Positions 3,724 through 63,116 of a stretch of DNA of 64,000 nucleotides are shown piece after piece. Numbering within the stretch: the first letter of the stretch is position 1; each line of letters opens with the position of its first letter. The stretch spans positions 1,352,995 through 1,416,994 of the forward strand of contig NC_016940.1 of the NCBI RefSeq assembly GCF_000250635.1, in the 5' to 3' direction. A program made the position numbers and the translations under genes. The stretch comes from Saprospira grandis str. Lewin. GTDB taxonomy: Bacteria > Bacteroidota > Bacteroidia > Chitinophagales > Saprospiraceae. The notes below the pieces were generated by a model. The model was not told the origin of the DNA, ran no database searches, and was given only the letters and a program-made list of their open reading frames with translations.

Positions 3724-3736
3724 ATTTATTTTTGTT

Positions 3737-4087
3737 TTTTTGGGGCCTCCCGCCTTTGGCGGGCGCTACGTTTCGGGGCTCGCAGGTCTGCTCGGCCCTG
3801 CGGCCTGACGGCCTTGGTCTGCGGCTAAGCCGCCCCCCTACACATCGCTAGGCCATTTGGCCTGCGGCTAGGGCTACACATCGGTTACTCCCTTTGGTCA
3901 TCGAACTGGCGCCCCTATAGGGGCTGGTTGTTGGGGCTCGCTGTTACTTGCTTCGCTGCGTCGGCTCCCCTTGGTCGGGTCGCTCGGCCCTGCGGCCTGA
4001 CGGCCTTGGTCTGCGGCTAAGCCGCCCCCCTGCACATCGGTTATTCCCTTTGGTCATCGAAGACGGCCTAAAGGCCTTGTTGTGGCC
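3737..4087 (+). repeat. composite GC-rich interspersed element, subfamily A2 (TTTTGGGGCCTCC…CGCTACGTTTCG…CTCGGCCCTGCGGCCTGACGGCCTTGGTCTGCGGCT…CATCGCTAGGCC), with an internal partial duplication
   Basis: A full A2 unit is followed by the GGTTACTCCCTTTGGTCATCGAACTG sub-unit and a second partial A2 unit. Same family as 42783, 50327 and 55598, and as reverse copies at 7279, 26218, 30637, 40456 and 51411. Confidence 0.8.
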
Positions 4088-7278: not shown

Positions 7279-7413
7279 GCGGCGAAGCCGCCGCAGGCCT
7301 AGCGATGCGGAGGGGTGGCCGAAGGCCAGACCAAGCCGCTCTAAGCGGCGAAGGGCCGAGCAGACCTGCGAGCCCCATAGCGTAGCGCCTGCCGAAGGCA
7401 GGAGGCCCCAAAT
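7279..7413 (-). repeat. GC-rich interspersed element, subfamily A2 (reverse orientation, ends GGAGGCCCCAAA)
   Basis: CCTAGCGATGCGG…GGCCAGACCAAGCCG…GGGCCGAGCAGACCTGCGAGC…CGTAGCGCCTGCC…GGAGGCCCC matches the reverse complement of the 42783 copy. Confidence 0.8.
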
Positions 7414-7450
7414 AAAAAGGCATCTAGCCGAAGCCAAATGCCTTTATCTC

Positions 7451-16715: not shown

Positions 16716-16725
16716 ACAACCCTCA

Positions 16726-16760
16726 AAAAGGGGCAGAACTTAGGTTTTGCCCCTTTTTTT
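16726..16760 (+). terminator. rho-independent terminator of the S8 peptidase gene
   Basis: AAAGGGGCA…TGCCCCTTT hairpin followed by T7. Confidence 0.7.
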
Positions 16761-16882
16761 AGGCCCTAAAATCAATAAACCCCTAAATTTCGCCGCTAAG
16801 CGAGCCTAGCTAATCTCTAGTAGGGTCAGTCCAGAAAAAAAAGACAGGACCTTAGTGATACGCCCAGAGGAGTTTGTAAACT

Positions 16883-17169
16883 GCAAATTAGCTCTGGGCA
16901 TCGTTCAGAGCTGTTTTGCAAATGCAAATTAGCTCCGGGCATCGTTCAGAGGCGTTTTGCAAATGCAAATTAGCTCCGGGCATCGTTCAGAGCTGTTTTG
17001 CAAATGCAAATTAGCTCCGGGCATCGTTCAGAGCTGTTTTGCAAATGCAAATTAGCTCTGGGCATCGTTCAGAGGCGTTTTGCAAATGCAAATTAGCTCT
17101 GGGCATCGTTCAGAGGCGTTTTGCAAATGCAAATTAGCTCCGGGCATCGTTCAGAGCTGTTTTGCAAAT
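16883..17169. repeat. tandem array, 41-bp unit x7 (GCAAATTAGCTCyGGGCATCGTTCAGAGsyGTTTTGCAAAT)
   Basis: Seven head-to-tail units with only two variable positions. The unit contains the TTTGCAAA palindrome and a GCAAAT direct dyad. Related 26-27 nt sequences flank it at 16866 and 17196. Confidence 0.9.
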
Positions 17170-17243
17170 GAAAATAAAGGCTAGCGCCAAGCCAGAGGCA
17201 TTTGTAAACTGCAGATAGGTCCCAAACTCTTGTTTAGGGGCAT

Positions 17244-21399: not shown

Positions 21400-21450
21400 G
21401 TTGGTTTGTTCAGGATATTGTATATCTAAATAAGTTTAGGGAAGTAGAAT

Positions 21451-21627
21451 TTAGCCAATAGTCGCCTAGGGACAAGCCCCTAGGCTAATAAATGGAGTCA
21501 GCCCTAAAGGGCCTCAAGGTAAGATACTTTTTGACTTACTTGTTCTTGCGAAGAAAACAGCGTCCCTAAAGGCCCTCGCAGAGGGCTGTCTACAAAAGCT
21601 AGCCTAGGGGCTTGTCCCTAGGCAGCT
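21451..21627. mobile_element. MITE-like element, family B, with ~30-bp terminal inverted repeats (GCCAATAGTCGCCTAGGGACAAGCCCCTAGGCTA)
   Basis: The left end at 21451 and the reverse complement of the right end at 21597-21627 share CCTAGGGACAAGCCCCTAGGCTA. A matching solo end is at 30107. No ORF. Confidence 0.65.
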
Positions 21628-26394: not shown

Positions 26395-29300
26395 ATGCAA
26401 AAAAAAGCAACAGAAGCGCAGTTCTTCTTTTCTCAACTGCTCAAGCTACAGCAAGTAGACCAACCTTTGGGGGCCAAATATCAGGCATTAGATGCCCTTT
26501 TGGTCCAGCTATTTTTACAATTGACCGAAAAAGAGCGCCTACATTTTAGTGATCGCTCGGCACGGATTGCCTTTTTGTCTCATAAAGAAGACCTCAGTCG
26601 CTCGGTTCAATGGCGGATCTACCAAATTATCAAGCGGGCCAAATGGATTCGCAGAAAAGAGCTGGAGCCTACGGCTGGCCAATACGCCTCGGCCCTAAAA
26701 ACCGTGGCCTTTGCCATTGCGGCCCTTTGTCATGTTCCTTTGCCCGAAGAATTGCGGGCCTATTTGCCCAGCGATGAGGAAGAAGAGCAGGAAGACCGCA
26801 ACCCCTTCCCTATTAAAGAAGGCATTATTGAGGAGCTCAAAGTGGTGGTTTTGCAAATTGATGCCGAGCAAGAGCTCATCATCTGCCAACCTTATGGAGA
26901 GGGCTATACCGACCAGCTCAGGCTGCGTTATAATGTGCCCGAAATCAATGCGCAGTTTAACTCGACCATTGAGCTGATGCAAGATCATTTTCCCGCTGGG
27001 GCCATTTTGCAATTGCTGCAGGTCTTGGTAGAAGAATCGGGAATTTTGCTGCCCAAACGCATCATCTTAGAGCCCGACTACTTGGTCGATGTGACCAGCA
27101 TTGCCGAATGTTTTCAGCCACAGGGCGCTTCGCCCTACCTCTTTTTGCTCAAAAAGTTTTCGGCCTATGAAAATAGCCTGCCGCTGATGCTGGGAAATAT
27201 TGCCAACCGCTTTTTGGACCTCTTGAGCAAGAACCCCAAGCTGAGCTTTCAGGAAGAATTCAAGAAGCTCTTTAGCCTCAATCCCTTGGGCTTTGCCGAC
27301 TTTAAGGATACCGATATTCGCAAGACCTATCATGAGGCCAAAAACCACTTTATCAACCTGCAGCATATTATCCTCAATGAGTTTCCCAAGCAGGGCATCG
27401 AGCGAGAGCGCATTTTGTTAGAGCCCTCTTTTTACTCTGCCCTTTATGGGATTCAGGGACGTTTGGACCTCTGGCAGCCGCCAGTAGAAGGCGATGATAA
27501 GGCCTTGATTGTGGAATTGAAGAGTGGCAAAACCTTTATGCCCAATAAGTATAACCTCAATCATAATCACTATGTACAGACCTTGCTCTATGGCTTGCTG
27601 ACCAAATCGGTTTATCCTAGCTATAAGAGTTTGGCCCATATTCTTTACTCCAAATTGCAAGAAAAACCGCTGCGTCTAGCCCCTAGCACGCAGTTTAAGG
27701 AGGATGAAGCCTTGGCCCTTCGCAACCAGATGGTGATGATCGAGCGGCAGCTGGCCCAATTGGACCAAAAATCACTGGAAGAATATGGCCTTTTGCATCA
27801 GTTAGGGCCTGCAATTATGCCCAAAGCTAGCGGCTATACCGCCAGAGGATTGGAAGAATTTGAGGCCTGCTTTTCTAAGCTAAGCGAGCTAGAACGCCGC
27901 TACTTTATTGCCTTTTGTAGCTTTATTGCCAAAGAACAAATTTTGGCCAAAACGGGGGTAGAAGGAAATGAACGCGCCAATGGACAAGCAGGGCTCTGGC
28001 TTAGCGAAAGAGCCGATAAAGACGAACATTTTGAGCTTTTGGCGGGGCTAGAACTACTAGAAAACAATAGCGAACAGGATCCCCCTATTCTCCGCTTTAA
28101 GCGAACGGAAAATACCAACCCCTTGGCCAATTTCAGACAGGGCGATATTGCTATTTTGTATCCCGAAATGGGCCAGGATGACAATGTCTTGAAGCATCAG
28201 ATTTTTAAGGGCTCTATTTCTCAAATCAATGCCGAAGAGCTTTGCTTCAAGCTTTACTCTCCCCAATGTAGCGGCAGCGTTTTTGAGGCGGCCAAAAGCT
28301 GGAGCTTAGAACACGATATGCTCGATAAGGGCTTTACGGTCCAATATCAATCGCTCTTCAAATTCATGAATTTCCATCCGGCCAAGCGACAGCTTTTATT
28401 GGGCCAAAGGGCCCCGCAAAAAAGCAGCGCTCCCCAAAATCGGAGCTTTATGCAGCCCTATTTGGGCGAAGACCAAAAGAGGATCCTCAACAAGGCCTTG
28501 GATGCCCAAGACTACTTTTTGTTGGTGGGCCCTCCGGGCACGGGCAAAACCAAGTTTATGCTGGCCCAAATGGTCGAATATCTCCACCGAAATAGCCAAG
28601 AAAACATCTTGCTTTTGGCCTATACCAACCGAGCTGTAGATGAAATTTGCGAAGCCATTGAGGAAGTGGGTATCCATGATTATCTGCGCATGGGCAGCCG
28701 CTATTCTTGCGATCCTCGCTTTGAACATCGGATGTTTTCGGTGCAAACAGAAGCCCTAGCTAGCCGCAAAGATCTGCGAGCGACCATCGACAAGCATCGA
28801 GTGTTTGTCTCTACGGTTTCTAGCATGCTCAACCGCCCACTTTTGCTCAAGCTCAAGCAATTTAATACTGTCATTATTGATGAGGCTTCACAGATTTTGG
28901 AGCCCATGTTGCTCGGTTTGCTTCCGCATTTTCAGCGCTTTGTGCTTATTGGCGACCATAAGCAGTTGCCGGCGGTAGTTTTGCAAGACAAAGAGCAGTC
29001 GGCGGTTAAAGATGAGTTGCTCCAAAGTATTGGCTTGCGCAATCGCCGCAACTCCCTCTTTGAGCGCTTGTTTGAGCAGGCCCAAAAAGAAGGCTGGACC
29101 CATTGCTACGATCAATTGCAGCATCAGGGGCGGATGCATGCCGAAATAGCCCGCTTTCCCAGCCAATTTTTCTATGATAATAAGTTGTTGGAACTGCCAG
29201 AAGACAATCCTATTGGCGACTGGCAGCAGCAGCCCCTGCCCTTCCGTCCGATGCCCCAGGCCTCTGCTTTGGAGCAGCTTTTGGCCCAGCATCGTCTGCT

Positions 29301-29778
29301 CTTTATTCCCAGTCAATCGGATTATCAGGGCAACAGCAAAACCAATGAAGAGGAAGCCATTCGGGTGGGCGAGCTGGTCCATGCTTTTCGGAACTTATAC
29401 GAGCAGCAGGGTGGCGGTTTTGCGCCAGAGGACCTTGGCATCATCACGCCTTTTCGGGCGCAGATTGCCCAGATTCGCCATGTTTTGGCCCAATATAATA
29501 TGGGTTATGAGCAGTGCAGCATTGATACGGTGGAGCGTTATCAGGGGGGCGCGCGCAAAATCATTCTCTTGTCTTTGGCCATCAATATGAGTCATCAATT
29601 GCCGGCCATTGTCTCTCTTTCCGATGATGAGCAGGTAGACCGCAAGCTCAATGTGGCCCTTACTCGGGCTCGGCAGCAGCTGGTGGTTTTGGGCAATCCC
29701 AAGCTACTGGCCAATGATCCTCGTTATGCGGCCCTAATGGCCTGGATTAAGGAGCGGGGCGGCTACTTTACCCCTTAG
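26395..29778 (+). CDS. Dna2/Bad-like nuclease-helicase: N-terminal RecB/Cas4-like PD-(D/E)xK nuclease plus C-terminal Upf1-like SF1B helicase
   Basis: Nuclease motifs D…ELK…QTLLY (RLDLWQ…LIVELKSGK…YVQTLLYGLL). Helicase motifs LLVGPPGTGKTK (Walker A), IIDEASQ (motif II), LIGDHKQLPAVV, ITPFRAQ, VERYQGG and NVALTRAR. Confidence 0.8.
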   Translation: MQKKATEAQFFFSQLLKLQQVDQPLGAKYQALDALLVQLFLQLTEKERLHFSDRSARIAFLSHKEDLSRSVQWRIYQIIKRAKWIRRKELEPTAGQYASALKTVAFAIAALCHVPLPEELRAYLPSDEEEEQEDRNPFPIKEGIIEELKVVVLQIDAEQELIICQPYGEGYTDQLRLRYNVPEINAQFNSTIELMQDHFPAGAILQLLQVLVEESGILLPKRIILEPDYLVDVTSIAECFQPQGASPYLFLLKKFSAYENSLPLMLGNIANRFLDLLSKNPKLSFQEEFKKLFSLNPLGFADFKDTDIRKTYHEAKNHFINLQHIILNEFPKQGIERERILLEPSFYSALYGIQGRLDLWQPPVEGDDKALIVELKSGKTFMPNKYNLNHNHYVQTLLYGLLTKSVYPSYKSLAHILYSKLQEKPLRLAPSTQFKEDEALALRNQMVMIERQLAQLDQKSLEEYGLLHQLGPAIMPKASGYTARGLEEFEACFSKLSELERRYFIAFCSFIAKEQILAKTGVEGNERANGQAGLWLSERADKDEHFELLAGLELLENNSEQDPPILRFKRTENTNPLANFRQGDIAILYPEMGQDDNVLKHQIFKGSISQINAEELCFKLYSPQCSGSVFEAAKSWSLEHDMLDKGFTVQYQSLFKFMNFHPAKRQLLLGQRAPQKSSAPQNRSFMQPYLGEDQKRILNKALDAQDYFLLVGPPGTGKTKFMLAQMVEYLHRNSQENILLLAYTNRAVDEICEAIEEVGIHDYLRMGSRYSCDPRFEHRMFSVQTEALASRKDLRATIDKHRVFVSTVSSMLNRPLLLKLKQFNTVIIDEASQILEPMLLGLLPHFQRFVLIGDHKQLPAVVLQDKEQSAVKDELLQSIGLRNRRNSLFERLFEQAQKEGWTHCYDQLQHQGRMHAEIARFPSQFFYDNKLLELPEDNPIGDWQQQPLPFRPMPQASALEQLLAQHRLLFIPSQSDYQGNSKTNEEEAIRVGELVHAFRNLYEQQGGGFAPEDLGIITPFRAQIAQIRHVLAQYNMGYEQCSIDTVERYQGGARKIILLSLAINMSHQLPAIVSLSDDEQVDRKLNVALTRARQQLVVLGNPKLLANDPRYAALMAWIKERGGYFTP

Positions 29779-29833
29779 TTTTCTCCTTTCTGATCTTAAT
29801 TTATCCCGCTAGTCATCATGACTAGGGGGATAT

Positions 29834-29987
29834 TTTTTTGGGGCCTGCCGCCTTTGGCGGCCGGGCCCTTGCAGGGCTCGCAGGTCTGCTCGGCCCTGCG
29901 TCGCCTTCGGCTCCTTGGTCTGGCCTGCGGCCACCCTTTCAGGCCCCTAGGCCGTTTGGCCTTCGGCCATGGGGCGGCGAAGCCGCC
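29834..29987 (+). repeat. GC-rich interspersed element, hybrid subtype (TTTTGGGGCCTGCCGCC… with an A1-like GGTCTGGCCTGCGGCCACC 3' part)
   Basis: Shares its architecture with the copy at 62963. Confidence 0.8.
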
Positions 29988-30106
29988 TGTTTAAATAGTC
30001 TCATGGGCTGTTTAGAGCCATGGGCTGAAGCCCTTGTTTGCTGAGGGGGCGGGACTGCTCAGGATTTTGTGTATCCGAATAAAATTTGGGCTTTTAGCTT
30101 GTTAGG

Positions 30107-30183
30107 ATTTGGCCAATAGTCGCCTAGGGACAAGCCCCTAGGCTAGCTTTTTCAGACAGCCCTCTAAAGAGGGCCTTTGGATG
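30107..30183. mobile_element. solo terminal fragment of family B MITE-like element
   Basis: GCCAATAGTCGCCTAGGGACAAGCCCCTAGGCTAGCTTTTTCAGACAGCCCTCT…GAGGGCC matches the right arm of 21451..21627. Confidence 0.6.
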
Positions 30184-30252
30184 AGATTCAGCTCTGCTAT
30201 AACGACTGGTCAAGGACCTGTATATCAACCTTTGGGGCTAAGCAGTTTACTT

Positions 30253-30563
30253 CCAGACCGAACTAGTTCACCGCCAGACCGAACTAGTTTACCTCCAGAC
30301 CGAACTAGTTCACTTCCAGACCGAACTAGTTCACCGCCAGACCGAACTAGTTTACCTCCAGACCGAACTAGTTCACTTCCAGACCGAACTAGTTCACTTC
30401 CAGACCGAACTAGTTCACCGCCAGACCGAACTAGTTCACCGCCAGACCGAACTAGTTTACCTCCAGACCGAACTAGTTTACCTCCAGACCGAACTAGTTT
30501 ACTTCCAGACCTAACTAGTTCACTTCCAGACATAACTAGTTCACTTCCAGACATAACTTTTGC
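30253..30563. repeat. tandem array, 21-bp unit x~15 (CCAGACCGAACTAGTTCACyk), each unit carrying the 10-bp perfect palindrome GAACTAGTTC
   Basis: Three unit variants differ only in the last 5 nt. The last 3 units degenerate (CTAACTAG, ATAACTAG). The array is open in several frames, giving a spurious PDRTSS-repeat ORF. Confidence 0.9.
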
Positions 30564-30636
30564 CTTTTTTCATTTTGTTGCGTTTTTTTTAGTTTTTAAC
30601 AAATCTCTAACAATTCAGTATAAAAAAAGGGGGATG

Positions 30637-30756
30637 AGCGGCCTAGCGATGCGGAAGGGGGCGGCGAAGCCGCAGACCAAGGCCGTCAGGCCGCAGGGCC
30701 GAGCAGCCTTGCGAGCCCTGCAGCGTAGCGCCTGCCGCAGGCAGGAGGCCCCAAAA
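30637..30756 (-). repeat. GC-rich interspersed element, subfamily A2
   Basis: GGCCTAGCGATGCGGAAGGGGGCGGCGAAGCCGCAGACCAAGGCCGTCAGGCCGCAGGGCCGAGCAGCCTTGCGAGCCC…GGAGGCCCCAAAA. Confidence 0.85.
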
Positions 30757-30813
30757 CAAAAAAGGCCAGCCCCAGAGGAGCTGACCTTCGTCAGTAATTA
30801 GTTAGCTAAGTCA

Positions 30814-33800
30814 TTAAGGCTTAACGACTTCAAAGTTCAGTTGGCTTTGCACGGCCTCGATATGAACATTAAGATAATAAGTACCTGCGGGTAGGTTTTG
30901 GATAGCATCTAGGGTAATGAGGTCGCCGGGGCGGACCGTTTGGCTGCTGCTAAAGACTTGGCGGCCGAGTACATCTAGGAGTTTGAAATTCACTTGGCTC
31001 GTTGTTTTGAGCTGGCTAAAGCGGATATTTACAAAATCGCTAGCGGGGTTCGGGAAGACCGTCACATCTAGTTCTGAGCTATTATTGACGGCACGGACCT
31101 CAGCGTACTCAAAGTCTCCGTTAAAGTCGACTTGTCGCAGGCGGTAGTAAGTTGTATTCTCGTAGCTATTATAGTCGGTATAGCTATAGTAGTTGGCGGT
31201 TGAGCTATTGCCTTGACCTTGGACAAAATCGATTTGGCTAAAGTCGGTTTCATAGTCAAACATGCGTTCTACCTCAAAGCCGCGGTTATCTCTTTCTGTT
31301 TCGCTGGCCCAAGAGAGGAGCACTTCAGAAGAAGACTGGCGTTCGGCATCGAAGAAGAGCCATTCGATGGGGAAATCGACATAAGTATTGGCATCGCGCC
31401 AGTCATTATCGTCGAGTCCGTCATTGTTGGGAGTTGGAGCGGTAGTACCGAGGGCGCTACCATTCACATTATCGTCAAAAATATCGGCGAGACCATCATT
31501 ATCGGCATCGATCCAGAAAGGAGAGTTAGGATCGAGGAAAGGAGGTGTTTGGTTATTGGTATAGCCATCTCCGTTGAGGTTATCTAGCCAATCGGGTAGG
31601 CCATCGCCATCGCTATCGGTATTGGGATAGTGAGCGGGGTTACCGCCGTTGGCGACATAGGCTGTGGCCATTTGGATAATTTCGTCGGCGGCATTGCCAT
31701 CGCCAGCGGTGGCGGTACCGAAGCCATTATCAAAGCCTTCGGCCCAGTCGAAGCCGCTATCATTATCAGAGTCGAGATCTAGATAATCTGCGGGAGCGGT
31801 GCCATCATTATTATCCTCATTGGGCGTAGCGCCGATATTTGCGCCTGCTGCTTGGTTGGCAGCATCTAGGCCTTCGTAGATATCGAGTACACCGTTTCCA
31901 TTAGCATCGGCGCCAGAAGGCGTCATGCCGAAGGTGGGGCAAGTTGAGCAAACGGCTTCTAGATAATCTGGGATACCGTCATTATCGGCATCGATATCAT
32001 AGAGGTCGGCAATACCGTCGCCATCTGTATCTAGGAGGTTAATGGTTCCATTTTGGAGGTCAGACCAGCCGTCGTTATTAGCGTCGGTAATGGGACCATC
32101 TTCAATTTGGCCATCGAGGGTACCGTTGGCGGGAGAATCGGTATTAGCGGCTCCGGTTACTGCTCCTGCTGCGGCTTCTACTACATCGGTAACTCCATCA
32201 TTATCGCTATCGAGATCGAGGAAGTTAGGTGTAGCGTCGGCATCTGCATTAGCATTTGGATAGCTATCTGGAGTGCCATCATTGTTATTGTCGGCGCCAG
32301 TCAAAATGAGTACGGCAGCGCTATTATCGGCAGTACCATCATTATTGGGGTCACCGTCTACGGCATCGGCAAAGCCATCGCCATCGGCATCAGTAAAGAC
32401 ATCTACTTGGCCGTCTCCATCGGCATCCGTTCCATAGGCTTCTAGAATATCTTGGACTCCATCGTTATCGCTATCGAGGTCATAGATATTAAGAATACCG
32501 TCGGCATCGAAATCGCCATTGGGGTAGCTATCGGGTTCGCCATCATTATTATTATCGGCTCCAGTAAGGATAAGGACTTGGGCGCTATTCTCGGCGGTAC
32601 CGTCGTTTCCGACATCGCCATCGAGGACATCATGCAGGCCGTCATTATCGGTATCGACAAAGTCGTCGGCAAAACCGTCTCCGTTGGTATCGGTTCCGCC
32701 AGCTTCTACCACATCTGCGATACCGTCATTATCGCTATCGAGATCATAGATATTAAGGACTCCATCGCTATCTGCGTCTCCGTTAGGGTAATTATCGGGG
32801 GCACCGTCATTATTGACATCATTGCCTGTAAGGATAAGAGCTTGAGCGCTGTTTTCTGCGGTGCCATCGTTTCCGACATCTCCATCGATAACATCATGCA
32901 AACCGTCGTTATCGGTATCGACAAAGTTATCGGCTAGGCCATCGCCATCGGCATCTGTTCCGCCGGCTTCTACTAGATCGGGTATACCGTCATTATCGCT
33001 ATCAAGATCGAGGTTATTCGGAATACCGTCACCATCGACATCATTGTTAAGATAACTATCGGCTAGGCCATCATTGTTATTATCGGCACCAGTAAGTTGG
33101 AGTGCATTAGCGGTATTTTCGGCGGTGCCATCGTTTCCGACATCGCCATCTACGGCATCATGAATACCATCGCCATCGGCATCGACAAAGTTATCGATTC
33201 TGCCATCGCCATCGGCATCAGTTCCGCCGGCTTCTACGGCGTCTGGAATACCGTCATTATCGCTATCGAGGTCAAATTGGTTAGGAATGCCATCGCCATC
33301 ATTATCGGCGAGGAATTCATTGCTACCGTCGGCATCGCGGTCGAGCAATACAGAAGTAGAATTAGCGGCAAGGCAGCTAGGTTGGGGGCCACAGGGGCTA
33401 GTGCCTTCTGGGCCATCGGTATCATCATTATCTACTGCATCGGGAAGGCCATCGCCATCCGAGTCCGTTAAATCATCGAGAATACCGTCTCCATTGGTAT
33501 CTACGCCACCAACTTCAACTAGGTCAGGAATACCGTCATTATCGTTATCCAGATCTAGGTGATTGGGTACGCCATCGCCGTCGAGGTCGAGGTTAGAGCA
33601 AGTCCCGTTAGCGTTGAGTCCGCCACAAGTGGGGAAATCAACATCGGCATAATTGGGTGTGCCATCGCCATCTAGGTCGCCATCGGGATCGGGGAGGCCA
33701 TTGGCACAGCTCCAGCCGTTCACGCCATCGAAGAAGGCGGCGCAATAATCGGGATCGGCATAATCGGGAGTACCGTCGCCATCATGGTCACCATTATAGG

Positions 33801-36800
33801 CTTCCACTGCATCGGGGATACCGTCATTATCTTGGTCGAGATCAGCTTTAGGATCTCTCCAATCGAGTTCGGCATTACCGGCATCTGCATCGGGATGGCT
33901 ATTGGGAGTAAGTCCTGTATTTGTAGCATCTGTGCTGCTGGTATTATTATCAAAACCATCAAGGAGGCCATCGCCATCGGCATCAACAGCCCCTCCGACA
34001 CCTGTATTAGCATTGGGGCTATCGCTAGCATCTACAAGGCCATCGCCATTTGTATCATGTCCTTCGATAAGGTCGCCTTCACCGTCATTATCGGTATCGA
34101 GGTCGAGATAATCGGGATTATCGGTAGCATCTGTATTTACGGGAGTAAGGCCAGAATTATCGCCACCGAAGAGGCCATCATTATTATCGTAAGCATCATC
34201 GATACCGTCGCCATCGGCATCGCTACCTGTGGGAGCGATATAGCTGCCTGTAGCTTGGGCTTCTGTATTATCTACGATACCATCATTATCGGCGTCAATA
34301 TCGAGGAAATTGGGATTATTATCGCCATCCTGATTAGCTGTAGTATAGCTATCGGGATAGCCATCATTATTGCCATCGGTAGTTGTAATGGGCGTAGTTC
34401 CAGCATTAGCGGCATCGCTAGTATTTGACCAACCGTTGCCATCGGCATCATTAGTAGTGGCATCATCCATTTGGCCATCGGCATTAGCGTCAGAGGCGGC
34501 TAGGCCAGCTTCAACGATATCGAGGATACCGTCATTATCGCTATCGAGGTCATAGAGGTTGAGTACGCCGTCGCCATCGAAGTCGCCTTCATTGTAGTTA
34601 TCTGGGCGGCCATCGCTTCCAGCATCGGGACCGGTAGCAATCAATGGGTTAGTGCCTGCGTCGCCAGCTACGCTATCATTATTGGCATCTGAGTCATATT
34701 GGTTAGAGAAACCGTCATTATCAGTATCTGTAAAGTTATCTACTTGGCCGTTGCCATCTACATCAGCTCCTCCAGCCTCTACTAAATCAGGAATACCATC
34801 ATTATCTGAGTCTAGATCATAAGCGTTGAGGTAATTATCGCCATCGGCATCGGCTGTAGGATAACTATCGGGATGGCCATCATTATTGCCATCGGGGCCA
34901 GTAACTACCAGGGCGCCGGCTGTATTTTCGGCGGTACCATCGTTTCCGACATCGCCATCTACAGCATCATAAAAGCCATCATTGTCCGTATCGCTAAAGC
35001 CATCAATAACGCCATCGCCGTCGGCATCTACGCCACCAGCTTCTACCACATCAGGGATACCATCATTATCGGCATCTAGGTCTAGATGATTGAGCAGGCC
35101 ATCACCATCGGCGTCGGCATTGGGGTAGCTATCGGGAGCGCCATCATTATCATTATCGGCTCCAGTAAGGACAAGGGCATTATTAAAGTTATCGGCAATA
35201 CCGTCATTATCGGGATCTCCATCAATAGGATCATGGAAACCATCGCCATCGGCATCGGCAAAAGCATCGACTTGGCCATCGCCATCGGTGTCTGTTCCGC
35301 CAGCTTCTACCAAATCGGGAATACCATCATTATCGGCATCTAGGTCATAAACATCTAGGATACCGTCGCCATCAAAGTCTCCTTGAGGAAAATCATCGGG
35401 TTGGCCGTCGTTATTGCCATCGGCACCTGTAGGTTGAAGGGCTTGAGCTAGGTTTTCTGCGGTGCCATCATTACCTACATCACCATCAACAACATCATTG
35501 AATCCGTCTCGGTCTGTATCTACATAATTGTCCGAAATACCATCGCCATCAGTATCTGTTCCCCCTGCTTCGACAACATCGGGAATACCATCATTATCAG
35601 CATCTAAATCCAAATAATTAGGAACACCATCATTGTCGGTATCTAGGTTGGCGATAGGAGTGCCAGCAGGCAGGCCTAAAGTATACTCCAAAGACACAGA
35701 TTGTACACAAGAAGAAATTGTATTTCCTCCACAAGTTGTATTTACGTTATTATTTGCATCCAAAGTCAACTGAATAGTCCCATCATCATTCCAACTATTC
35801 CATAAAGCAACTGGAATAGTAAATGCAAAATTCATATACGGGGTTACACAGTCAGCATAAGCAGGATTATCAGAATTAGAGCGATCTATAGTTAGTAATA
35901 CATTGCCCAATTCATCTAGAAGTGAAATCTCTTCTCCTGCGTTACCATAGTCTCCAGCCAAGGAAAATCGCCAAACAGCATTCGTAGTAATATCAACGGT
36001 TGATACAGTAAAATTCATTACATGATTAGGACCATTTCCCCCCAAACATTCATCAGGAGAAGTCGCAACCTCATTGGTAACAAGTAAATCATCATAAGCA
36101 TCCGCCAGACCATCGGCATCAGCATCTACAAAAGTATCTACTCGGCCATCGCCATCAGTGTCTACTCCTCCAGCTTCCACTATGTCAGGAATACCATCAC
36201 CATCGGCATCAAGATCATAGGCATTGATAATACCATCGCCATCAGCATCATAAAAATCGCTAACGCCATCAAAATCGGCATCTACAAAGTTTACATCATC
36301 GGGGTCGAGATAGTTGGGGATACCATCACCATCAGTATCATCTTCAGGATCTAAACCATTATGTTCTAAAAGGTCTGGAATACCATCATTATCATCATCA
36401 GTATCTACAGCATCGGCGATACCATCACCATCAGCATCACAATCAGGTGTACTTCTAGTAAAGGGAGCAGATGAAACATCGTAAGACCAGAACCAAGTAA
36501 CAATAGTTCGGGCATTACCATAGTCATCGCAAAGGTCTGCAGGAGTTGCTGAGCCAGCTCCTGCTGTAGGGGCAGGAGAGGCAAAGGTAGCTGCTCCATC
36601 CCAAGCATGTGTTGGGCCTAAGAAGCCCTCCAACATATTTGTTGAAGCCACACCAGTGGCTGTACTGTTGTGATTACCTACATCAGAACAGTCTCCGATA
36701 GGGTTTAAGTTAGTATCATCCCAATAAAGTTTTCTATTTCCTAAAGCTGGAAAAAAAGCATTTACAGAAAATCCACTAGAGTTTAGCTCGGCATCATGCA

Positions 36801-37974
36801 TAGGAATAGCTGTTCGCCCTCGAAAAAGAGTAGCCGTAATTTCAAAGCTAGTGGCTCCAGAAACAGGGTTTCCTTGGCCATCTAGACCATCCCAGTTTAG
36901 TACGTGATTACCTGCGGCTAAATCATAAGCCTCAAGAACTCTATCTGCCGTTCCTGACTGATAGCCTGCAACACCATTTAAATCTAAAAGAAGTGCCGCA
37001 TCTCCTGGATCAGGTAAAAACAAAGGGATATAGTATGCACCTGGACAACCATATACATTGGCTGGAATAGCTGGGGCAGCTGAAGGAGGTACTACACGAA
37101 AAATGCTTGTATCAGGCACTGCCAAAAAAACCTCATAGCCATCAGCAAATGCAGGGGAGTTTTGTCCCGAATAAACTGAAGCCCGATCATTGACAAAATC
37201 TCCATTATCAACAACTCCATACTTGTTCATCGCCAATACATATCCCAAAGGGCGAAAGCCAGTTTGAAAATTCATCCGAACAACAGAGCTATCTGAAGTA
37301 TACGCATAATAATCTCCTTCAAAAGAAAAGTTAATAGAAGGCGTAAAGTCTGGACTTGCAGGGTCATATGTAATAAATGACCAGCGCTGACAGTGTAAAC
37401 GTCCCTCTAAGAAAGTATTGGTCCCATTCTCTGCTACTGTAATATCAAAGTAGGGAAAAAAGATTTCGCCGTTGGCAGAGGCATCTGCTGTAGCTCCACC
37501 ATCTGTACTTTGAAATAGCTCAATACGATAATCCCCGTTTTGAGTGGGGGTAAATGTAAGCGGAGTATAGCCAGCAGGATTTGTTCCTCCAATATTTGGC
37601 CCTGCTACTGCTTCATTATAGGTATTGATGAAGCCAGCTCCTGCTGTTTGTAATAAAAAGGCTGGAACGACTACAGTACCTAAGGGGTCGATAACTCGAA
37701 TATAGACATTATTAGGTCTGCTCACTGCAGGAAGCCGCTCGTACATATTAAAGCCCAAATAAATTGTCTCCGTACTAAAGTCAGAAATAGAGACCTTTAA
37801 GCCATTGTTTACCCCAGAGTTGAGGTAAGAGCCATTTCCCAAGGACTGCCGAATCCAGAGGGCCGTTCCATTGGTACTGTTAGGCATTACCTGGGCTGTC
37901 CCTTCTGCTCTTAACTGGGCAGAAAAGAACAAAAGCAATGCACTTAAAATTAAGTGATAGTAAATTCTTTTCAT
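30814..37974 (-). CDS. giant (2386 aa) secreted protein with dozens of thrombospondin type-3 (calcium-binding DxDxDGxxDxxD) repeats and a T9SS C-terminal sorting domain
   Basis: Signal peptide [24 protein letters not shown] ~100-aa module ([25 protein letters not shown]…[12 protein letters not shown]…[10 protein letters not shown]) is repeated more than 10 times. C-terminal [14 protein letters not shown]…LDVLGRQV is CTD-like. Confidence 0.85.
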
Positions 37975-38490
37975 ATTGGTGGTTTTGGTTTAGTAATCGA
38001 CTAGGCAATACAAATATGATACGATTAGGGCGATTTTGTGACATAATCAAAATCTAAAAAACTCATTCATTATCAATACCCTAAATTTCACTGATCAACA
38101 TATATAACATAAAATCATGAGAACAAATAATTTAAGCTGTAAAATGTGACTGAGTTTTTTATCTCTGCAGAGATCCTCTCCTTTCCAATGCGTCACTTTT
38201 TTCAAATTTTATTTTCATATATTTTTTTACCTAAATTATAATAAATATCATATTTTATCAAAACAATTTAATAAAGTCCAAAAACAAGGCTTTTCAGCTT
38301 ATACAGTCCTTTCTCCAAACTGTACAAATACTGGACAGGCCCCTCTTTTATAGTCTTCTCTGCCATTACGACTATTTTGTACCTACGGACTTCTAAGCAG
38401 AAATAAAAATCTGATAATCAGCAAAAACAAGGGGTTGGCCCGCATTATAATGCGGGCCAACCCCTAAATACGAGCTGCCTATTTTAGATC

Positions 38491-40455: not shown

Positions 40456-41010
40456 TGGCGGTCTGGGCGGGCCGAAGGCCCGCCGGCCTAGCGATGTGCA
40501 GCAGTGCGGCGCAGCCGCAGACCCAGGCCGTCAGGCCGCAGGGCCGAGCAGACCTGCGAGCTGCGGAACGTAGCGCCGACGAGCGAAGGGAGGCGGAGGC
40601 CCCAAAACAGCAGCGAGCTGCGACAACCAGCCTCGAAGAGGCGCCAGTTCGACGACCAAAGGGAGTAAACGTAGCGCCGACGACCGAAGGGAGGCGGAGG
40701 CCCCAAAATAGCAGCGAGCTGCGACAACCAGCCTCGAAGAGGCGCCAGTTCGACGACCAAAGGGAGTAAACGTAGCGCCGACGAGCGAAGCGAGGCGGAG
40801 GCCCCAAAATAGCAGCGAGCTGCGACAACCAGCCTCGAAGAGGCGCCAGTTCGACGACCAAAGGGAGTAAACGTAGCGCCGACGAGCGAAGCGAGGCGGA
40901 GGCCCCAAAATAGCAGCGAGCTGCGACAACCAGCCTCGAAGAGGCGCCAGTTCGACGACCAAAGGGAGTAAACGTAGCGCCGACGAGCGAAGGGAGGCGG
41001 AGGCCCCAAA
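40456..41010 (-). repeat. GC-rich interspersed element (A2) expanded by four tandem copies of an internal ~101-bp sub-unit
   Basis: The A2 head (GGCCTAGCGATGTGCAGCAGTGCGGCGCAGCCGCAGACCCAGGCCGTCAGGCCGCAGGGCCGAGCAGACCTGCGAGCTGCGGAACGTAGCGCCG) is followed by four copies of GAGGCGGAGGCCCCAAAAyAGCAGCGAGCTGCGACAACCAGCCTCGAAGAGGCGCCAGTTCGACGACCAAAGGGAGTAAACGTAGCGCCGACGAsCGAAG. The period of 101 bp was counted at 40591, 40692 and 40793. Confidence 0.85.
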
Positions 41011-42694: not shown

Positions 42695-42782
42695 GATTTG
42701 GGAAGTCTGTTTATTATCTCTGTAGGTTAAAACCTCATAAAGCTAATCCTTTGAATATACAGGATAGTGAATAGTTGGGGAT

Positions 42783-42917
42783 TTTGGGGCCTCCTGCCTG
42801 CGGCAGGCGCTACGTTTCGCAGCTCGCTATTCGCTCGGCCCTGCGGCCTGACGGCCTTGGTCTGCGGCTGTGCCGCACTGCTGCACATCGCTAGGCCAGG
42901 CTGGCCGAAGGCCAGCC
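42783..42917 (+). repeat. GC-rich interspersed element, subfamily A2 (compact reference copy)
   Basis: TTTTGGGGCCTCCTGCCTGCGGCAGGCGCTACGTTTCGCAGCTCGCTATTCGCTCGGCCCTGCGGCCTGACGGCCTTGGTCTGCGGCTGTGCCGCACTGCTGCACATCGCTAGGCCAGGCTGGCCGAAGGCCAGCC. Confidence 0.85.
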
Positions 42918-44579: not shown

Positions 44580-45127
44580 CCCTATTCGATAGAGATCAAA
44601 TACCCCATCAAGGGCTTGATGCCCTATTCGACAGAGATCAAATACCCCATCAAAGGCTTGATGCCCTATTCGACAGAGATCAAATACCCCATCAAAGGCT
44701 TGATGCCCTATTCGACAGAGATCAAATACCCCATCAAAGGCTTGATGCCCTAGTTGACAGAGATCAAATACCCCATCAAAGGCTTGATGCCCTATTCGAT
44801 AGAGATCAAACACCCCATAAAAGGCTTGATGCCCTATTCGATAGAGATCAAATACCTCATAAAAGGCTTGATGCCCTATTCGACAGAGATCAAATACCCC
44901 ATCAAAGGCTTGATGCCCTATTCGACAGAGATCAAATACCCCATCAAAGGCTTGATGCCCTAGTTGACAGAGATCAAACACCCCATCAAAGGCTTGATGC
45001 CCTATTCGACAGAGATCAAATACCCCATCAAAGGCTTGATGCCCTAGTTGACAGAGATCAAACACCCCATCAAAGGCTTGATGCCCTATTCGACAGAGAT
45101 CAAATACCCCATCAAAGGCTTGATGCC
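44580..45127. repeat. tandem array, 42-bp unit x13 (CCCTATTCGACAGAGATCAAATACCCCATCAAAGGCTTGATG)
   Basis: 13 head-to-tail units with sparse variants (ATACC/ACACC, TTCGAC/GTTGAC, CATCAA/CATAAA). The unit contains the CATCAA-AGGC-TTGATG inverted repeat and a GATC site. It is open in several frames, giving a spurious DALFDRDQIPHQRL-repeat ORF. Confidence 0.9.
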
Positions 45128-45138
45128 CTAATTGGTCC

Positions 45139-51410: not shown

Positions 51411-51536
51411 GGCGCCAATGGCCTAGCGATGCGAAAGGGTGGCCGTCAGGCCAGACCGAGGCGCTTTGCGCCGAAGGGCCGAGCAGAGCTGCGAGCCCTG
51501 TAGCGTAGCGCCTGCCGCAGGCAGGAGGCCCCAAAA
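51411..51536 (-). repeat. GC-rich interspersed element, subfamily A2
   Basis: GGCCTAGCGATGCGAAAGGGTGGCCGTCAGGCCAGACCGAGGCG…GGGCCGAGCAGAGCTGCGAGCCC…CGTAGCGCCTGCCGCAGGCAGGAGGCCCCAAAA. Confidence 0.85.
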
Positions 51537-51550
51537 ATAACAGCAGTAAG

Positions 51551-62934: not shown

Positions 62935-62969
62935 CAGCAGCTACTGATGCAGTAGTTGCTGTTTTTTTT
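62935..62969 (+). terminator. rho-independent terminator of the lipoprotein pair
   Basis: CAGCAGCTACTG-ATG-CAGTAGTTGCTG, a 12-bp stem, followed by T8. Confidence 0.8.
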
Positions 62970-63116
62970 GGGGCCTGCCGCCTGCGGCGGCCGGGCCCTT
63001 GCAGGGCTCGCAGCTCTGCTCGGCCCTTCAGCCCTTCGGGCTTCGGTCTGGCCTGCGGCCACCCTTTCAGGCCCCTAGGCCAGTCGCTGCGCTCCTTTGC
63101 GGCGGCTCCGCCGCCT
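62963..63116 (+). repeat. GC-rich interspersed element, hybrid subtype
   Basis: TTTTTTTTGGGGCCTGCCGCCTGCGGCGGCCGGGCCCTTGCAGGGCTCGCAGCTCTGCTCGGCCC…GGTCTGGCCTGCGGCCACCCTTTCAGGCCCCTAGGCC…. Same architecture as 29834. Confidence 0.8.

Follow-up and report, generated by a model that had tools for sequence, protein, structure and literature searches.

A 21-bp tandem array with a palindromic core in Saprospira grandis Lewin is probably a strain-specific minisatellite expanded in place

Introduction

Several described systems are built from short repeats that are clustered in bacterial DNA. Plasmid iterons, such as those of pSC101, R6K, P1, F and RK2, typically lack palindromes, and each replicon has a fixed number of them. 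In partition sites, repeats or palindromes recruit a dimeric protein, and some of these sites are tandem arrays. Mycobacterial MIRUs (40–100 bp) lie within operons and often overlap the stop or start codons of the flanking genes, and classic contingency repeats have units of 1–9 bp within promoters or reading frames. Minisatellites or variable-number tandem repeats (VNTRs), finally, consist of head-to-tail repeats of a unit of ~10–100 bp, the copy number of which is polymorphic at an orthologous locus.

The locus described here lies in a 64-kb stretch of Saprospira grandis Lewin (hereafter the window) and consists of a 21-bp unit with a palindromic core, repeated head to tail between two convergent genes. 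A preliminary description, made from the letters alone, had read it as a phased binding array of the kind seen in iterons, parS-like sites or nucleoid-protein binding sites. Comparison with sister strains leads to a different reading: with a probability of roughly 0.78, the array is a strain-specific, non-coding minisatellite that has expanded in place. Nothing was found in the literature on tandem repeats in Saprospira.

Setting of the array

The spacer and the genes on either side contain the following features:

26395–29778, plus strand: helicase gene (1127 aa, superfamily 1, AAA_11/AAA_12; Pfam)
29805–29839, plus strand: hairpin CCCGCTAGTCATCATGACTAGGGGG then ATATTTTTTT, right after the helicase stop codon (by-eye reading)
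29833–29968, plus strand: GC-rich dispersed element (REP/MITE-like), left arm of an inverted pair bracketing the spacer
30056–30178, plus strand: second dispersed element (“family B”), also at 21407–21623
30145–30243, plus strand: left flank of the array, unique in the window and kept at the orthologous locus
30244–30552, no strand: 21-bp tandem array, 14.7 copies (Tandem Repeats Finder limits, unit table)
30253–30546, plus strand: 14 full in-register units, CCAGACCGAACTAGTT[C/T]AC[C/T][G/T] (unit table)
30260, 30302, 30323, 30365, 30386, 30407 and 30428: perfect palindromes GAACTAGTTC
30547–30632, plus strand: truncated last unit CCAGACATAACT and conserved AT-rich tail TTTGCCTTTTTTCATTTTGTTGCG...TTTTTAACAAATCTCTAACAATT
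30640–30763, minus strand: GC-rich dispersed element, inverted copy
30761–30789, minus strand: intrinsic-terminator-like hairpin and T-run right after the adhesin stop codon
30814–37974, minus strand: T9SS adhesin gene (2386 aa, T9SS C-terminal sorting domain; Pfam)

The array is located between the 3′ ends of the helicase gene and the T9SS adhesin gene. The preliminary description had placed it in a convergent intergenic region between a nuclease-helicase and a giant adhesin gene, a spacer packed with two A-family elements and a family-B element, and this picture is borne out: the helicase and T9SS-tail genes meet 3′ to 3′, and two inverted GC-rich copies and the second dispersed element are present between them. 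The arms of the inverted pair (29833–29900 and 30692–30759) are 79% complementary. The GC-rich element is ~125 bp long and occurs in more than 15 copies in the window (for example at 3731–3868, 7296–7421, 42782–42897, 51417–51537 and 62963–63081), almost always intergenic and found in either orientation, and Saprospira short-read contigs regularly stop within it.

On the adhesin side, the array lies ~210 bp beyond the terminator-like hairpin at 30761–30789. The hairpin at 29805–29839, which the scan did not call and which was recognised by eye, is the probable terminator of the helicase gene and is kept in four other strains (L004, L005, L006 and L010, see below). Because a hairpin and T-run directly follow each of the flanking genes, the array lies outside both transcription units. 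The second dispersed element bears a further terminator-like hairpin at 30122–30143. A promoter scan found no sigma-70-like promoter in the spacer, and a pattern scan found no Bacteroidetes-type promoter (TTTG-N15-23-TAnnTTTG) near the array.

Structure of the array

According to Tandem Repeats Finder, the array extends from 30244 to 30552 with a period of 21 bp, 14.7 copies, 92% matches and 0% indels. When up to two mismatches are allowed, CCAGACCGAACTAGTTCAC matches 14 units, which follow each other in exact 21-bp steps, where none would be expected by chance; a degenerate form of the unit is CCAGACNNARCYAGTT. The perfect 10-bp palindrome GAACTAGTTC is present in half of the full units (7/14), and the imperfect cores are GAACTAGTTT in five units and TAACTAGTTC in two, the 8-bp palindrome AACTAGTT being kept in all 14. 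The array was first described as 15 copies of a perfect palindrome spaced two helical turns apart. The exact 21-bp register stands, but only seven of the 14 full units carry GAACTAGTTC, and the fifteenth is a 12-bp stump, CCAGACATAACT, that merges into the flank; the helical turns are arithmetic (21/10.5) and no measurement. At the left edge, the nine bases 30244–30252 (AGTTTACTT) are already a partial unit. Outside the array, neither GAACTAGTTC nor the 8-bp palindrome AACTAGTT occurs in the 64-kb window; for GAACTAGTTC, base composition predicts 0.07 copies in the whole window, and within the window, the check on palindrome density proposed in the preliminary description thus turned out in its favour.

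The units fall into variants A (..TTCACCG), B (..TTTACCT) and C (..TTCACTT), which together with some further forms are arranged in the order A B C A B C C A A B B B′ D E. The ABC-ABC start indicates the duplication of a 63-bp block, and the order as a whole suggests that one to three units at a time were duplicated again and again. Divergence is greatest in the two 3′-most units, which have CT and AT at positions 7–8. Slippage or unequal exchange typically leaves such an ordering of variants and such decay at the edge.

Of the six reading frames, three stay open throughout the array, with a 206-aa ORF on the plus strand and a 109-aa ORF on the minus strand. The array could accordingly be suspected to encode a small protein of heptad repeats, PDRTSSP on the plus or SELVRSG on the minus strand: the period is a multiple of three, both ORFs begin with ATG, and a central T-to-C change in a related metagenome array (L024, see below) is synonymous in the plus frame. 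However, the plus frame has no match in 5.8 billion protein clusters, and the sole Pfam match of the minus ORF, Grass antifreeze beta roll, is repeat-driven and scores 27.5 bits against a cut-off of 30. Start codons are not conserved in strain DSM 2844, from which the ATG of the plus ORF is absent, and the ATGs of the minus strand derive from CAT variants in the final two units of the Lewin array. The plus ORF runs on through the tail and the GC-rich element to an end that differs in each strain, the differences between units are mostly non-synonymous (S/L, P/L, R/L/I, R/Q), and a 42-bp version of the repeat on another metagenome contig (L022) has stops in all three plus frames. A coding repeat is close to refuted and barely credible. 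The earlier verdict that no protein-coding sense is possible is too strong for the sequence alone, given its open frames, but that the array is non-coding holds on comparative grounds.

Avoidance of the restriction site ACTAGT, which every unit contains, was considered and rejected: the hexamer is found twice outside the array, against 17 copies expected from composition and 4.7 from a Markov model, and many other 6-bp palindromes are equally rare. ACGCGT, CACGTG, CCCGGG, CGTACG and GACGTC are each absent from the 64 kb (11–14 expected from base composition), and ATTAAT occurs twice (22 expected from composition, 15 from a Markov model). The scarcity of 6-bp palindromes, checked on the window and on L004, L005, L002 and L074, may be due to depletion of CG-containing words or to restriction avoidance in Saprospira DNA.

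The same locus in other strains

The helicase encoded in the window is identical to that of strain Lewin. The regions downstream of its gene were compared across the rest of the cluster formed by this helicase at 90% identity. Many short-read helicase contigs end in the GC-rich element before the array and are uninformative on unit number. The loci are:

Lewin (window): 14.7 units
DSM 2844 (L006): two full units, each with the core GAACTAGTTT; identity of the flanks 85% (left) and 92% (right)
Metagenome strain L010: one full unit, CCAGACACAACTAGTTTACCG, with a partial one on either side; flanks 95–97% identical
Saprospira sp. CCB-QB6 (L004): no unit, although the two flanking genes are there
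S. grandis CP110854 (L005) and ERZ28505417 (L009): neither adhesin nor array

Unit number thus differs between Saprospira strains (0, 1, 2 and 14.7), which is what the comparison suggested in the preliminary description was meant to reveal. The core of the single unit in L010 is CAACTAGTTT and imperfect, and the left flank (30145–30243) is 97% identical in this strain and 85% in DSM 2844. In a three-way alignment of Lewin, DSM 2844 and L010, the Lewin array appears as one clean insertion of whole units, the rest being collinear. An insertion of whole units between collinear flanks is the mark of an expansion that took place on the spot and in one lineage.

In CP110854, 8.5 kb of the window are replaced by ~140 bp, and the metagenome strain ERZ28505417 has the same adhesin-less gene order. 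The breakpoints, 29966 and 38473, were mapped against CP110854 only:

29967–38472: strain-variable 8.5-kb segment with dispersed elements, array, tail, T9SS adhesin gene and its upstream region

One breakpoint of this presence/absence polymorphism coincides with the border of a GC-rich element, and the upstream region of the adhesin gene is AT-rich. Where the adhesin is present, its product measures 1672 aa in DSM 2844, 2451 aa in CCB-QB6 and 2386 aa in Lewin. The array is dispensable: CCB-QB6 has both genes without any unit, and CP110854 and ERZ28505417 lack adhesin and array together.

Copy number that varies strongly between strains, within a strain-variable segment that encodes a surface adhesin, could also mark a contingency (phase-variation) locus, at which unit number would tune a nearby gene, for example that of the T9SS adhesin, via a promoter, an antisense RNA or read-through; the related array on L022 indeed starts ~100 bp upstream of an outer-membrane beta-barrel gene. 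The Lewin array, however, faces the 3′ ends of both its neighbours from beyond their terminators, neither type of promoter consensus is present in the spacer, and a 21-bp unit departs from the 1–9 bp of classic contingency units. A role of this kind is very unlikely.

Other arrays in the window

The window contains four non-coding arrays, the 21-bp array and three more:

16873–17175: 41-bp array, 7.4 copies, between the genes for a peptidase S8 and an alanine racemase, with a leader at 16716–16872
40567–41010: 101-bp array, 4.4 copies
44580–45130: 42-bp array, 13.1 copies, in another convergent spacer

The 42-bp unit is present in single copy in strains in which the adjacent 190-aa protein is identical (L074 2200–2260 and L076 1700–1760), and the 101-bp array is unexpanded in L005 and L009 (8700–8850 in both), where one plain GC-rich element is found. 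All three comparable arrays (21, 42 and 101 bp), which lie within 15 kb, are thus expanded only in Lewin relative to other S. grandis strains. The amplification of unrelated units in Lewin speaks for an expansion process that is general and not tied to the 21-bp site. Short-read assemblies of Saprospira break in these regions because contigs end inside the arrays or the neighbouring dispersed repeats.

As to the units themselves, the 42-bp unit holds a hairpin, CATCAAAGGCTTGATG, and its single copy in L074 and L076 is bounded by a short direct repeat, CCCTAT/CCCTAA, which is a plausible seed for the first duplication. The 101-bp unit consists of the 3′ part of the GC-rich dispersed element and ~60 bp of extra sequence. 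The 41-bp array has a counterpart in CCB-QB6 (L004 588–857) that shares its position and its period but consists of 6.6 copies of strongly diverged sequence, which suggests concerted evolution; unlike the 21-bp array, it looks maintained across species. Its upstream leader (~150 bp) is 89% conserved in CCB-QB6, and part of it recurs in the helicase–adhesin spacer of that strain (L004 13887–13953), followed by two ATGCATTTTGCA(A/G)G repeats.

A unit-plus-tail family

On its right side, the array passes through the truncated unit into a tail, the stretch 30553–30632 of which is 75% A+T. The tail (~75 bp) accompanies the 21-bp unit at every related locus found. Six tails align well, and their profile scores 63–80 bits on each of them (nhmmer E 8e-18 to 3e-23) and finds no further copy in the 64-kb window, in 23 kb of CCB-QB6 or in the other Saprospira loci examined. 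The unit itself occupies one locus in the window. When 185,579 full genomes, one for each species, were scanned for exact 19-mers only, it was found at the orthologous locus of DSM 2844, its one place in that genome, and as one chance match in an Acidobacteria MAG. A metagenome scan returned 59 loci, of which 56 are single chance matches.

Three metagenome contigs from one sample (L019, L022 and L024) carry the unit together with the Saprospira GC-rich element. L024 ends within an array of at least 7.7 units, mostly CCAGACC[G/A]AACCAGTTCACCT, the core of which is mostly AACCAGTT and not palindromic. L019 starts within such an array, which is followed by the same AT-rich tail as in Lewin and then by a different gene. 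L022 has 7.5 copies of a 42-bp repeat made of two diverged 21-bp subunits, then the same tail and, ~250 bp beyond it, two inverted units with a second tail. The left flank of the Lewin array (30145–30243) is absent from the other loci of the family. Unit and tail together form a small, low-copy dispersed repeat family of Saprospira, with a copy number of 2 to ~15 depending on the locus, and their presence at several unrelated loci makes the Lewin array one locus of this family.

Where the L022 units are inverted relative to the tail (3975–4040), they meet it in a hairpin, GTTCAGT-AAAAT-ACTGAAC, suggestive of a rearrangement by way of the palindromic core. A by-eye reading of the tail shows a minus-strand mini-ORF of 10 codons, MKKGKS(Y/S)VW(K/G/R), at 30573–30602; in Lewin, L006, L010 and L019 alike, it starts in the tail and is closed by a TGA or TAA that belongs to the first repeat unit. 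It is probably a by-product of conserved DNA.

The conserved core and tail are also what a binding array would offer. The palindromic core would be the site of a putative dimeric protein, the 21-bp phase would bring the sites onto one face of the helix, and the tail would serve as a region of unwinding or bending. Such an array would agree with the retention of AACTAGTT in 14/14 units and of GAACTAGTTC in seven, with a period of exactly 21 bp without indels, with the absence of the palindrome elsewhere in the 64 kb and with the conserved tail of 75% A+T (30553–30632) that adjoins the repeats wherever the family occurs. It is at odds with the sister strains, which have one or two units with imperfect cores, none in CCB-QB6 and a deleted locus in two cases, as well as with the mostly non-palindromic core AACCAGTT of L024, the inversion of units relative to the tail in one copy (L022 3975–4015) and the expansion of unrelated units in the same window of the same strain. 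The locus lies ~26–31% along the sister-strain records, that is, at neither origin nor terminus if these records start near the origin.

Nor do the neighbouring genes point to a binding protein. Pfam detects no Rep, winged-helix initiator, ParA, ParB, ParR or HTH domain in the genes within ~10 kb, and no Rep, winged-helix initiator, ParB, ParR or HTH domain in those beside the metagenome copies, several neighbouring genes being without any Pfam match. By blastn with the array and its tail, 72,556 plasmids (PLSDB) and 50,697 phages gave no match, and IMG/VR gave no exact match to the tail pattern. The phased binding array of the preliminary description, modelled on iterons, parS or nucleoid-protein sites, is hence not upheld, with zero to two imperfect units in the sister strains and no Rep, ParB or HTH gene nearby, and its proposed check for a dimeric HTH or ParB-like protein came back empty for the genes within ~10 kb. 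Binding arrays are an unlikely explanation.

Conservation of the tail across loci is not explained by a purely neutral model. Unit and tail could conceivably be a Saprospira-specific cis-acting module, either a platform for a putative dimeric protein or the end of a non-autonomous mobile element, which would disperse to new loci and have its repeat number tuned in each strain. On this view, the Lewin array would represent not junk but an extreme allele of a functional site; we consider this distinctly unlikely.

Origin of the array

A minisatellite expanded in place could have arisen in the following manner. The seed, about two degenerate copies of the 21-bp unit, would have lain beyond the terminators of two convergent genes, and as AGTTTACTT / CCAGACACAACTAGTTTACCG / CCAAACATAACT it is still visible in a metagenome strain. 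In the Lewin lineage, this seed has expanded in place until 14.7 copies were reached, presumably through slipped-strand mispairing at replication, unequal recombination between sister copies, or both. Single units and blocks of two or three units were presumably duplicated repeatedly, yielding the order ABC-ABC-C-AA-BBB, and the oldest and most diverged units would be those at the 3′ edge. The palindrome would be a property of the amplified seed and not a selected binding site, and the array may well have no function.

The palindrome may nevertheless contribute to amplification, which would be its only likely mechanical role. As single-stranded DNA, the array folds with -44.5 kcal/mol, compared with -15.8 ± 3.2 kcal/mol for shuffled sequences (z = -9.1), which is due entirely to pairing between neighbouring units (-6 to -8 kcal/mol per pair). 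Neighbouring cores would pair through stems of 9–10 bp with loops of 11 nt, and this pairing might stabilise slipped intermediates and render the array unstable. The 41- and 42-bp units, however, are not more stably folded than shuffled sequences (z = -0.4 and -1.6), so that hairpins can at most have been a helper in the expansion of the 21-bp array. The L024 array, with its mostly non-palindromic core, is also expanded, and hairpins are not required for the expansion of arrays in the Lewin genome.

The strong fold (z = -9 as DNA) might also be taken as the mark of a structured non-coding RNA or a terminator-like element transcribed from the spacer. It is, however, the trivial result of repeating a palindrome; no Rfam family matches at E ≤ 1, no promoter consensus is found in the spacer, and sister strains with one or two units cannot form the structure (z = +0.4 in L010). 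A structured RNA is extremely unlikely.

An eye-catching array of phased palindromes can thus arise by simple amplification of a seed that happens to bear a palindrome, and for arrays of this kind sister strains should be compared before a binding function is proposed. For typing of S. grandis, the 21-bp locus and likewise the 42- and 101-bp arrays would be good length markers.

Comparison with known systems

Partition sites (chromosomal parS, parC of R1, type Ib parH and parS) resemble the array in their clustered short repeats or palindromes. Yet the core GAACTAGTTC differs from the consensus of parS, TGTTNCACGTGAAACA, no adjoining par operon was found, with neither parAB nor parMR nearby, and the site is absent or in single copy in sister strains. 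The locus is also away from the start of the record, and hence from the origin if the records of the sister strains start there.

Plasmid iterons are likewise helix-phased direct repeats of 17–22 bp beside an A+T-rich stretch, and the 21-bp unit with its tail of 75% A+T has just this layout. In contrast to iterons, the Saprospira locus is chromosomal and without a rep gene: no Rep initiator gene is seen among the genes within ~10 kb or beside the metagenome copies, and PLSDB, the phage records and IMG/VR give no sign of residence in, or descent from, a plasmid or phage. Repeat number and sequence are not conserved (0, 1, 2 and 14.7 units among Saprospira strains), and no DnaA box was noticed when the spacer was read by eye.

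By analogy, the unit-plus-tail family may be likened to the mycobacterial MIRU-VNTR loci. In both, one short family of units occupies several intergenic loci with a copy number that varies by locus and strain, the Saprospira unit being found in at least three further contexts that are unlinked (L019/L024 and twice on L022). The differences are that the Saprospira unit is 21 bp long, is coupled to an AT-rich tail, lies outside transcription units, is without sequence similarity to MIRUs and belongs to a family known from about four contexts.

Closest are the VNTRs or minisatellites used in MLVA. The array is non-coding, intergenic and head-to-tail (period 21, 14.7 copies, 0 indels), with a unit in the range of 10–100 bp; at the orthologous locus, its copy number is 14.7, 2 or 1 between conserved flanks (85–97% identical), its variants are arranged in blocks and its edge units are degenerate. 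What sets it apart from such loci is the palindromic core, the period of exactly 21 bp and the expansion of several unrelated arrays in Lewin alone. The array looks like an ordinary, though tidy, VNTR.
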